Source: Candidatus Woesebacteria bacterium RIFCSPHIGHO2_01_FULL_39_32 (GTDB taxonomy: Bacteria > Patescibacteriota > Microgenomatia > UBA8517). Taken from it: a DNA stretch of 64,000 bases. This document shows positions 61,561 through 62,247 of the stretch, in pieces. Positions within the stretch are counted from its first letter, which is position 1. Each line of letters starts with the position of its first letter. The translations under genes were made by a program, and so were the position numbers. Location of the stretch: the NCBI GenBank assembly GCA_001792345.1, contig MGGJ01000001.1, forward strand, positions 217,710-281,709, written 5' to 3'. The notes beneath the pieces were generated by a model that worked only from the letters and a program-made list of their open reading frames with translations, was not told the origin of the DNA and ran no database searches.

Positions 61561-62247
61561 CTAAAAGGGAATATCGTCCTGTGCTCCTTCGTTTTGATGC
61601 GGGAAACACAATCTGTATTTGCACCAAGCACAAGTGTCTGATTCTTCGGGAACAGGACCATTTAACAATCCAGAAACTTCGTCAATCAAACCATAAAATG
61701 AATCCATATCCTCAGAAATCTCAAACCAGTTAGGTTTGGATGTAAAATTAACCCCGCCATTATTAAATTCAATTGATTCTGGCGAAACAATAACCACTCC
61801 CATTTTGCTAACATTTTTGGGTTCAATTCCGTTTTGAGGGTTTTCTAAAGCGAATTTATAGGCGTGAAGCTGACTGGAAAACTTTTGCGCCTTATCCTCA
61901 TTTGGGTCTGAAATTTTAAAATCAATGACACTAAAACTTCCGTCGTCGAGTTTGGTCAGAAAATCAAACCTTCCGGAGATATAGCAATCATTTTTTGACG
62001 GAATCGCGGCAGACTTCAAATACCCCTCTGCAACTTGAATTTTCCCTTTCGGAAGCTCGGAACTTAAATCCTGTAAATCCATGCCGACTAAAGATTTTTG
62101 CAGCAATCCATTCATTTTAGAAAACACTCCGGGGATACCAATTGAAGGCAAAGCTATTCCGTACTTAACCTTTTGAAAATAACAATGCTTACAATCGTTC
62201 CAAAGATACCTAAAGTCAGAAGGCGAGAGTTTGTACATTTGAGACAA
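61561..62247 (-). CDS. Cas4-like / RecB-family PD-(D/E)xK nuclease with Fe-S cysteine cluster (DUF83-like)
   Basis: N-terminal CKHC, nuclease motifs GRFDFL and VIDFKIS (D...D-x-K), C-terminal CAWCKYRLC (C-x2-C-x4-C) as in Cas4/AddB iron-sulfur nucleases. No cas genes nearby. Confidence 0.6.
   Translation of the reverse strand: MSQMYKLSPSDFRYLWNDCKHCYFQKVKYGIALPSIGIPGVFSKMNGLLQKSLVGMDLQDLSSELPKGKIQVAEGYLKSAAIPSKNDCYISGRFDFLTKLDDGSFSVIDFKISDPNEDKAQKFSSQLHAYKFALENPQNGIEPKNVSKMGVVIVSPESIEFNNGGVNFTSKPNWFEISEDMDSFYGLIDEVSGLLNGPVPEESDTCAWCKYRLCFPHQNEGAQDDIPF

Follow-up and report, generated by a model that had tools for sequence, protein, structure and literature searches.

What does a stand-alone gene for a Cas4-like nuclease do inside an island of repeats: does it serve CRISPR adaptation, phage or defence, does it belong to the repeats, or is it a cellular gene in its own right? 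The gene considered here lies at 61561..62247 on the minus strand of a 64,000-nucleotide (nt) stretch (hereafter, the window) of contig MGGJ01000001.1 of Candidatus Woesebacteria bacterium RIFCSPHIGHO2_01_FULL_39_32. A first-pass annotation, made from the letters of the window, had described its product as an orphan Cas4-like iron-sulfur (Fe-S) nuclease with no CRISPR-Cas context. Our results indicate with high confidence that the protein belongs, as a biochemical class, to the RecB-family PD-(D/E)XK nucleases of the Cas4-like structural class. As for its role, it is probably a chromosomal, stand-alone housekeeping nuclease that processes DNA ends, from a conserved family widespread in Microgenomates (candidate phyla radiation (CPR)/Patescibacteria).

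Family assignment and cysteine module

The mechanical open reading frame (ORF) call gave 228 amino acids (aa) from a TTG codon at 61561..62247 on the minus strand. The product is 100% identical to a database entry, a hypothetical protein of the same organism, and a word-indexed search returned more than 875 homologues, the best 120 of which share 59–100% identity with it. The identical protein and these homologues indicate that the ORF is a genuine gene and not a chance one. Since the homologues all begin with MYKLSPSDF, the true start is the ATG at 62238, which gives 225 aa. The 228-aa ORF of the first-pass annotation is thus present on the minus strand, with its start moved from TTG 62247 to ATG 62238. 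The features of the gene and its product are as follows.

61561..62238, minus strand: coding sequence of the nuclease, 225 aa plus a TAG stop codon, start fixed by homologues
62247..62275, minus strand: putative sigma-70-like promoter, TCGACT-17 nt-TATAAT, by consensus match only
62182..62193, minus strand: N-terminal CxxC, CKHC (C16, C19), invariant in the close clade and the broad family
about 61954–61971, minus strand: GRFDFL stretch, named in the first-pass annotation and present
61963..61971, minus strand: RecB motif II, R-F-D92, with the invariant catalytic Asp, from the family alignment
61915..61923, minus strand: RecB motif III, D106-F-K108, the (D/E)xK element, invariant
61858..61872, minus strand: QLHAY (Q123...Y127), the QhxxY motif of RecB/Cas4-type nucleases; Q and L invariant, Y nearly so
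61606..61632, minus strand: C-terminal CAWCKYRLC (C-x2-C-x4-C); C203 and C206 invariant
61564..61581, minus strand: C-terminal tip Q-D-D-I-P-F on a low-confidence, probably disordered linker, from the homologue alignment and the model

Residues 86–212 of the nuclease matched Pfam PF12705 (PDDEXK_1) with 33.6 bits against a cut-off of 22 (E = 5e-8). The thresholds of the Cas4 models were not reached: PF01930 (Cas_Cas4) gave 15.5 bits against a cut-off of 22.7, and NCBIfam cas4 TIGR00372 gave 25.3 bits against 65 (E = 1.1e-5). PADLOC likewise returned only sub-threshold Cas4 models (Cas4, 3e-6). Among 32 diverse members of the family, 31 matched PF12705 and two matched PF01930, weakly. NCBI labels members of the family 'PD-(D/E)XK nuclease family protein' or hypothetical. 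Searches of the PDB by sequence, with the single protein or with a family profile, gave nothing meaningful, and matches were obtained by fold comparison alone. An AlphaFold2 model built with 28 homologues had a predicted local distance difference test (pLDDT) score of 82 and a predicted template modelling (pTM) score of 0.80. In Foldseek, it matched the nuclease domain of AdnA (9np6_A, 6e-7) and Cas4 SSO0001 (4ic1, 6e-5, template modelling (TM) score ~0.5); further matches were human EXO5, MGME1, RecE, the Argonaute-associated Cas4-family ACE1 and AddAB. Since PF12705 was passed, the Cas4 models failed and the fold matched AdnA, Cas4 and EXO5, the protein is very probably a RecB-family nuclease, and it is outside the Cas4 family proper (PF01930/DUF83). 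The PD-(D/E)xK core proposed in the first-pass annotation is thus borne out by PF12705, by the invariant catalytic motifs and by the RecB-like fold matches. The profile search led to a RecB-type nuclease and not to an unrelated family; the Cas4/DUF83 membership that had also been proposed has to be dropped on the scores above.

Conservation was assessed in 28 close homologues (59–74% identity) and 32 members of the wider family (27–53% identity). C16, C19, G89, D92, D106, K108, Q123, L124, C203 and C206 were invariant. Every element named by the first-pass annotation (CxxC, GRFDFL, DFK and C-x2-C-x4-C) was found, with its coordinates verified, and the QLHAY motif was absent from its list. The expected conservation of the cysteines was seen in part: four of them, forming two CxxC pairs, are invariant, whereas the fifth, C211 (x4-C), is specific to the clade, being present in 100 of 120 close homologues and missing in 99 of the 106 broad-family representatives that have the 2+2 cysteine pattern. 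In the model, each CxxC pair lies at the start of a helix, one of them N-terminal and the other C-terminal.

The cysteines of Cas4, AddB, Dna2 and EXO5 consist of one N-terminal Cys and a C-x2-C-x5-C. All Cas4 proteins carry four conserved cysteines according to a 2017 survey (PMC5704561). Unlike those of the Cas4/AddB spacing, the predicted metal ligands of the nuclease are two CxxC pairs (2+2); the module is Cas4-like in position and different in spacing. With invariant ligands of this kind and the third C-terminal Cys absent from the 99 representatives, the Cas4/AddB-type Fe-S cysteine signature previously assigned to the protein does not hold. The four cysteines would hold one metal centre, either zinc or an Fe-S cluster like that of Cas4, AddB and EXO5, and this centre would staple both ends of the protein across the active site. 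That this cofactor is a structural Zn(Cys)4 site instead of an Fe-S cluster, a question separate from that of function, is possible although somewhat doubtful. Two CxxC knuckles at helix starts are typical of zinc sites, the 2+2 arrangement is unlike the one-plus-three spacing seen in Cas4, AddB and EXO5, and the third C-terminal Cys required by the Cas4 pattern is missing in most of the family. On the other hand, AdnA, Cas4, EXO5 and AddB are Fe-S proteins and carry their clusters at the equivalent N/C-terminal staple, and four cysteines are equally able to ligate a [4Fe-4S] or a [2Fe-2S] cluster.

The nuclease resembles Cas4 (PF01930/COG1468, SSO0001, 4ic1) in its length of ~200–230 aa, its RecB-type core with QhxxY and the Cys module joining the terminal helices. 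It differs in its scores below both model thresholds, its 2+2 cysteines, the lack of cas1, cas2 or CRISPR nearby and its acidic -IPF tail. The best structural matches were to AdnA/AdnB and AddB, the 'iron staple' proteins (9np6_A, 6e-7; 4ceh_A), which share PF12705; the nucleases of AdnAB, AddAB and RecBCD, however, are fused or partnered with a superfamily 1 (SF1) helicase, while the present one consists of one 225-aa domain, and no helicase gene is conserved beside it. EXO5, which has an Fe-S cluster, and MGME1 are housekeeping enzymes that process single-stranded DNA (ssDNA) ends and flaps. They share with the nuclease a single-domain RecB-like fold (7lw8, 5zyu), although their identity to it is 12–14% and their lineage is eukaryotic.

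Distribution and gene context

The sources named among the best 120 of the more than 875 homologues were Woese-, Ames-, Gottesman- and Berkelbacteria and the 'Patescibacteria group'. An exhaustive profile search of 1.84 billion 50%-identity cluster representatives gave 868 matches at E ≤ 1e-3, 551 of them with E ≤ 1e-10; the close nuclease clade collapses to a handful of such clusters, and one cluster of the wider family is annotated as Limnocylindrales (Chloroflexota). In a pattern-limited scan of one genome per species, 47 loci were found, mostly in Microgenomates (Woese-, Gottesman-, Levy-, Davies-, Curtiss- and Amesbacteria), with a few in Saccharimonadia and Buchananbacteria. Many homologue loci (L010, L012, L016, L019 and others) are titled 'uncultured Gammaproteobacteria bacterium' and one 'Bathyarchaeia archaeon', which are probably taxonomic mislabels or mis-binned contigs. 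Identity was 50–86% across several Microgenomates lineages (hundreds of homologues), and such high conservation across lineages looks like that of a vertically inherited cellular gene.

No conserved neighbour or operon partner of the nuclease emerged from all-against-all clustering of 697 ORFs from 50 loci. The commonest neighbours were an RNA recognition motif (RRM) protein (8 of 49 loci), TspO (7) and a cupin (6), and a DEAD-box gene adjoined the nuclease in only three of the 49. Homologues were found beside the rplC ribosomal-protein operon (L006), PolX (L005), ClpP (L007) and Obg (L029). In L029, the order is Obg on the minus strand, a 193-aa gene on the minus strand, the nuclease and a DEAD-box helicase. 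Beside nuclease homologues in two other genomes (L007 6329–7753 and L059 1069–2463) lies a gene of unusual make-up, in which a LexA DNA-binding domain is joined to an S24 peptidase and an N6/N4 DNA methyltransferase.

The nuclease gene has a promoter-like site of its own, which suggests that it is monocistronic. Its -10 box ends 8 nt ahead of the ATG, and there is no Shine-Dalgarno sequence ahead of this codon. Since the box lies so close to the start and a Shine-Dalgarno sequence is lacking, the mRNA probably has no leader, or only a very short one. A -10-like box also occurs 7–15 nt upstream of the start codon of the homologues in L006, L029, L057 and L059.

The absence of a CRISPR-Cas context, noted in the first-pass annotation, was confirmed. 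No cas gene was present in the Pfam-annotated parts of the window (~1,800–23,300, 24,300–46,000 and 54,000–64,000; the ORFs at 1–1,800 and ~46,000–51,500 fall outside this annotation) or in ~10 kb past the window end. Tandem Repeats Finder and a search for interspaced direct repeats revealed no CRISPR array in the whole window, and neither cas1, cas2 nor CRISPR was among the recurrent neighbours in the 49 nuclease loci. The annotated parts of the window hold polysaccharide-synthesis genes, RecO and the dcw cluster (mraZ to ftsZ).

The first-pass annotation had also pointed to phages, anti-CRISPR activity and defence islands as the settings of stand-alone Cas4-like genes. This reading gained little support: tblastn against 50,697 phage records yielded no homologue of the nuclease, and no neighbour was conserved in the 49 loci. 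PHROG matches were weak and confined to the catalytic core, and BFVD matches were generic to the fold (TM 0.4–0.6). A phage origin was rejected on the tblastn result, the weak PHROG matches and the absence from viral contigs of the pattern of composite repeats described below. The phage Cas4-like/RecB exonucleases (Campylobacter phage and the mycobacteriophage pfam12705 clade) are of the same superfamily and resemble the nuclease at the level of fold in BFVD; they differ from it in that no sequence homologue of the nuclease was detected in the phage records and its gene context is cellular.

CPR and DPANN genomes lacking CRISPR-Cas are enriched in solo Cas4-like genes, which have evolved mostly vertically; the Cas4-like proteins of pfam12705 are not CRISPR-associated, CPR are mostly without CRISPR-Cas, and it has been suggested that solo Cas4 in CPR serves repair or defence (PMC5704561, Hudaiberdiev et al. 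2017). The distribution found here matches this published picture (PMC5704561). The nuclease shares with the solo Cas4-like genes of CPR and DPANN its stand-alone nature, small genome, lack of CRISPR context and apparently vertical descent (PMC5704561). In kind, the gene looks like an ordinary one that has already been catalogued, a solo Cas4-like PF12705 nuclease of CPR. The Solo-Cas4 of Methanosarcina mazei, an archaeal protein that forms a high oligomer with a [4Fe-4S] cluster, was reported to be without a RecB motif (PMC12501428); the Microgenomates subfamily differs from it in cysteine spacing and in its tail.

The motif-bounded array and its composite repeats

The island around the gene is built on a 15-nt motif, GGGGTCAAATTTGGA on the plus strand and TCCAAATTTGACCCC on the gene strand. 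With at most two mismatches, 10 copies occur in the window against 0.33 expected, all at 57810–63977 and in one orientation; the motif is absent from the remaining 56 kb. A longer stretch of the contig (L001, 20.7 kb), which covers the array and reaches past the window end, holds ~21 copies across 11.5 kb, all co-oriented. The array occupies 56940–63977 of the window and continues into L001 3795–15285, ~6 kb past the window end. The copies mostly lie 6–30 nt past the stop codon of the co-oriented preceding ORF, some of them 57–90 nt, and the copy downstream of the nuclease starts 7 nt past its stop codon. The guanine-cytosine (GC) content of the island is the same as that of the rest of the window.

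The motif was seen in L001, L006/L013, L020, L022, L029, L057 and L059. Similar arrays are present in other Woesebacteria (L022, L029, L057 and L059), and in L006, the motif brackets a HicAB pair. A copy of the cassette ORF at L001 4610–5071, 83% identical to it, also lies between motifs in L029, where its neighbours differ. A pair of motifs encloses obg, which encodes an essential GTPase, and a CHRD-like gene, both on the opposite strand (L001 6704–8226). Since obg itself is enclosed by motifs, such enclosure marks neither an accessory nor a mobile gene. Obg, the 193-aa gene and the nuclease are separated by motif-bounded units in this genome, and L029 has the same three together, with no boundary motif near the nuclease. 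Because this backbone order exists without the motif and obg is enclosed here, the nuclease appears to be a backbone gene around which the Woesebacteria-specific array expanded, rather than a cassette. Moreover, since relatives carry the nuclease beside Obg, the ribosomal operon or ClpP without repeats, the repeats belong to the locus of this lineage and not to the nuclease gene.

Several identities of the motif were considered and rejected, that of a simple promoter only as the sole explanation. A -35 box can be read in the TTGACC of some copies; the nearest -10 box, however, lies anywhere from ~16 to 37 nt away, and not every copy has one. For an intrinsic terminator, the stem with a T-run was not found. 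The array resembles integron cassettes in its co-oriented units separated by a repeated boundary site. It differs from attC in that the boundary is ~15–25 nt and has only an 8–10-nt internal palindrome. A canonical attC/integron was rejected, since neither inspection by eye nor folding revealed paired inverted R''/R' cores and there is no integrase within 20 kb. No tyrosine recombinase was found among the called genes of L001, and neither known RNA families nor tRNA attachment sites were found in the island. The motif-bounded array is more unusual than the nuclease itself.

On both sides of the nuclease lie the composite repeats reported in the first-pass annotation, each bounded by two copies of GGGGTCAAATTTGGA and containing a 29-nt palindrome, TTCCAACATTCTCAAGAATGTGAGAATAG. 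Their positions, with that of a third composite in the window, are as follows.

62284..62440, minus strand: upstream composite repeat, an ORF-less remnant of a helix-turn-helix (HTH) unit, with motifs at 62284–62298 and 62426–62440 and the palindrome at 62318–62346
61413..61554, minus strand: downstream composite repeat, with motifs at 61413–61427 and 61540–61554 and the palindrome at 61442–61470
63839–63977: third composite repeat of the window

L001 holds five composites of ~126–157 nt, including these three. They align end to end with a ~430-nt unit at L001 5741–6170, which encodes a small ArsR/MarR-like winged-helix protein (ORF end, 6144). What the short composites lack is exactly the ~290 nt between two direct copies of ATTCTYACATTCTTGAGAAAGT; one of these copies falls within an imperfect palindrome of 30 nt ahead of the HTH gene; the other supplies the final codons of that gene. 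The alignment indicates that the composites flanking the nuclease are ORF-less deletion derivatives of the HTH-gene unit; that they represent its ancestral empty form is less likely. A role of the composite as a structured RNA was rejected, since only the ~30-nt palindrome folds (z-scores, -0.4 to -3.2) and the alignment shows a deleted HTH unit. When metagenomes were scanned with the 5' end of the composite, only the same two genomes came up, and the composite pattern was not found in viral contigs.

Other genes in and beside the array were as follows. A 348-aa protein encoded at 58794–59840 of the window (minus strand) has a C-terminal NucS_C/PD-(D/E)XK domain and matches the PADLOC candidate defence family PDC-S02 (E = 1e-51); an Amidase_3 gene at 58103–58786 (plus strand) is convergent with it. 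Paralogues of a ~100-aa coiled-coil protein (MDDVKKMFR.IVNGQS..KQELL...), 64–76% identical, form separate motif-bounded units, two here (window 59959–60264, minus strand, and L001 6218–6514) and two in L022 (3637–3960 and 10846–11169). At the far end of the array, L001 379–3401 carries a toxin-antitoxin pair of the HicA/HicB type and, with an N6/N4 methyltransferase, a restriction enzyme resembling MwoI. The window at 56950–57800 contains short ORFs only, and 57433–57488 is 79% similar to part of the 109-aa gene at 61056–61385; this region may be a decayed copy of a cassette.

C-terminal tail, function and rival explanations

In the model, residues 214–225 of the nuclease have pLDDT values below 50, and the linker of the tail varies in length and sequence among homologues. 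The tail ends in PF in 103 of 116 full-length close homologues, with the consensus Q-[ED]-[ED]-I-P-F; among these 103, Q occupies position -6 in 70, I, L or M position -3 in 99, and F position -1 in all. Since a PF ending is rare in the wider family (3 of 120 representatives), we take the PF-ending tail as an innovation of the Microgenomates clade. The C-terminal tip of the bacterial ssDNA-binding protein (SSB), termed SSB-Ct, is DDDIPF, the hexapeptide by which SSB recruits its partners (PMC5872125), and PMC10018359 also presents the tip as a partner-recruiting hexapeptide. QDDIPF of the nuclease is nearly identical to it, having acidic residues followed by I-P-F on a probably disordered segment. 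It also recalls the C-terminal beta-clamp-binding motif, whose consensus is QLxLF (PMC4549789) or a hexapeptide variant with Q first, a hydrophobic residue fourth and an aromatic residue or Leu last, in Q at -6, a hydrophobic residue at -3 and F at -1, but its position 2 is acidic and not Leu.

In 729 kb of CPR DNA, all but one of the ORFs with a C-terminal [DE]x[ILMVF]PF were copies of the nuclease, and no SSB gene was found there for comparison with the tail. A literature search, which was limited and is no proof of novelty, gave no report of a nuclease with an SSB-Ct-like tail. The likeness of the tip to these two motifs suggests that the tail may have a hub-docking or auto-inhibitory role. 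The SSB-tip-like tail and the 2+2 cysteines are modest new details. The window also encodes a RecO of 181 aa with a RecO_N domain only (25756–26301, plus strand), a candidate partner of the tail; E. coli RecO binds the SSB tip.

We propose that the enzyme would cut DNA in a Mg/Mn-dependent manner and trim single-stranded ends or flaps in the repair and recombination of reduced genomes. The ssDNA ends or flaps would thread beneath the metal-stapled arch, as in Cas4, AddB and EXO5, and the flexible QDDIPF tail might dock the nuclease on a replication or repair hub, either in a pocket that recognises the SSB tip or in the cleft of the beta-clamp. The enzyme would have no part in CRISPR adaptation.

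Several points weigh against a housekeeping role. In the window/L001, L022, L057 and L059, a motif lies within ~160 nt on each side of the nuclease, as it would in a cassette. Several homologue loci border restriction-modification, toxin-antitoxin, DndB and reverse-transcriptase genes, which also fits a gene of defence islands. The structural matches are moderate (TM ~0.5, 13–18% identity). The subfamily is known from sequences and models, and the putative docking role of the tail is drawn from resemblance of sequence. The first two of these points would be explained if the gene encoded a mobile, cassette-borne nuclease of defence or anti-defence, directed against invading DNA or CRISPR as phage Cas4-like proteins are. 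This explanation agrees with the position of the gene inside an 11.5-kb co-oriented array of ~21 motifs with a motif on each side, with its occurrence in a motif array also in L022 and near motifs in L057 and L059, and with neighbours here and elsewhere such as PDC-S02/NucS_C (1e-51), HicAB, restriction-modification, DndB and reverse transcriptase. We nevertheless consider it unlikely, as no homologue was found in the phage records, the PHROG matches were weak and limited to the catalytic core, and PADLOC gave only sub-threshold Cas4 models. Furthermore, in L029 and L006, the nuclease has no motif and lies beside Obg or ribosomal genes, Obg is itself motif-enclosed here, conservation is high and roughly tracks the taxonomy in record titles, and the GC content of the island is normal.

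The nuclease could instead serve the array, by processing, inserting or excising the cassettes of an integrase-less, integron-like platform. A motif array lies within a few kb of the nuclease in every motif-bearing genome, a search that used the 5' end of the composite and not the nuclease recovered only the same loci, and the 20 kb around the array yielded no recombinase. However, this co-localisation is biased, nearly all loci having been fetched through the nuclease gene, and ~40 of 49 homologue loci have no motif, so that the family is independent of the array. To our knowledge, PD-(D/E)XK nucleases do not catalyse site-specific cassette exchange, and we judge a function in the array very unlikely. 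The bolder version, in which the array is an undescribed integrase-less, integron-like platform of Woesebacteria and the nuclease its dedicated processing enzyme, tethered to repair by a tail that mimics the SSB tip, is a highly speculative idea to which we give little credence. A genuine CRISPR-adaptation Cas4, serving in trans a CRISPR-Cas locus in another part of the genome, would agree with the weak similarity to TIGR00372 (1.1e-5), the PADLOC Cas4 model (3e-6) and the structure 4ic1. It is extremely improbable, given that every Cas4 model stayed below its curated threshold, that cas1, cas2 and an array were missing near the gene and from the recurrent neighbours in the 49 loci, and that the literature places the Cas4-like proteins of pfam12705 outside CRISPR systems and finds most CPR without CRISPR-Cas (PMC5704561). 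A stand-alone housekeeping nuclease that processes DNA ends thus remains the probable role of the protein.

The Cas4-like signatures of CPR genomes should be interpreted with caution and not taken as a sign of CRISPR, anti-CRISPR or phage origin. CPR bacteria have minimal sets of DNA-repair genes, and the resection and trimming of DNA ends in them are poorly known. A strongly conserved stand-alone Cas4-like nuclease is a plausible candidate for the resection or trimming of DNA ends in CPR. If its tail does copy the SSB tip or the clamp motif, the protein would be a clean example of a repair enzyme that plugs into a hub-recognition pocket.

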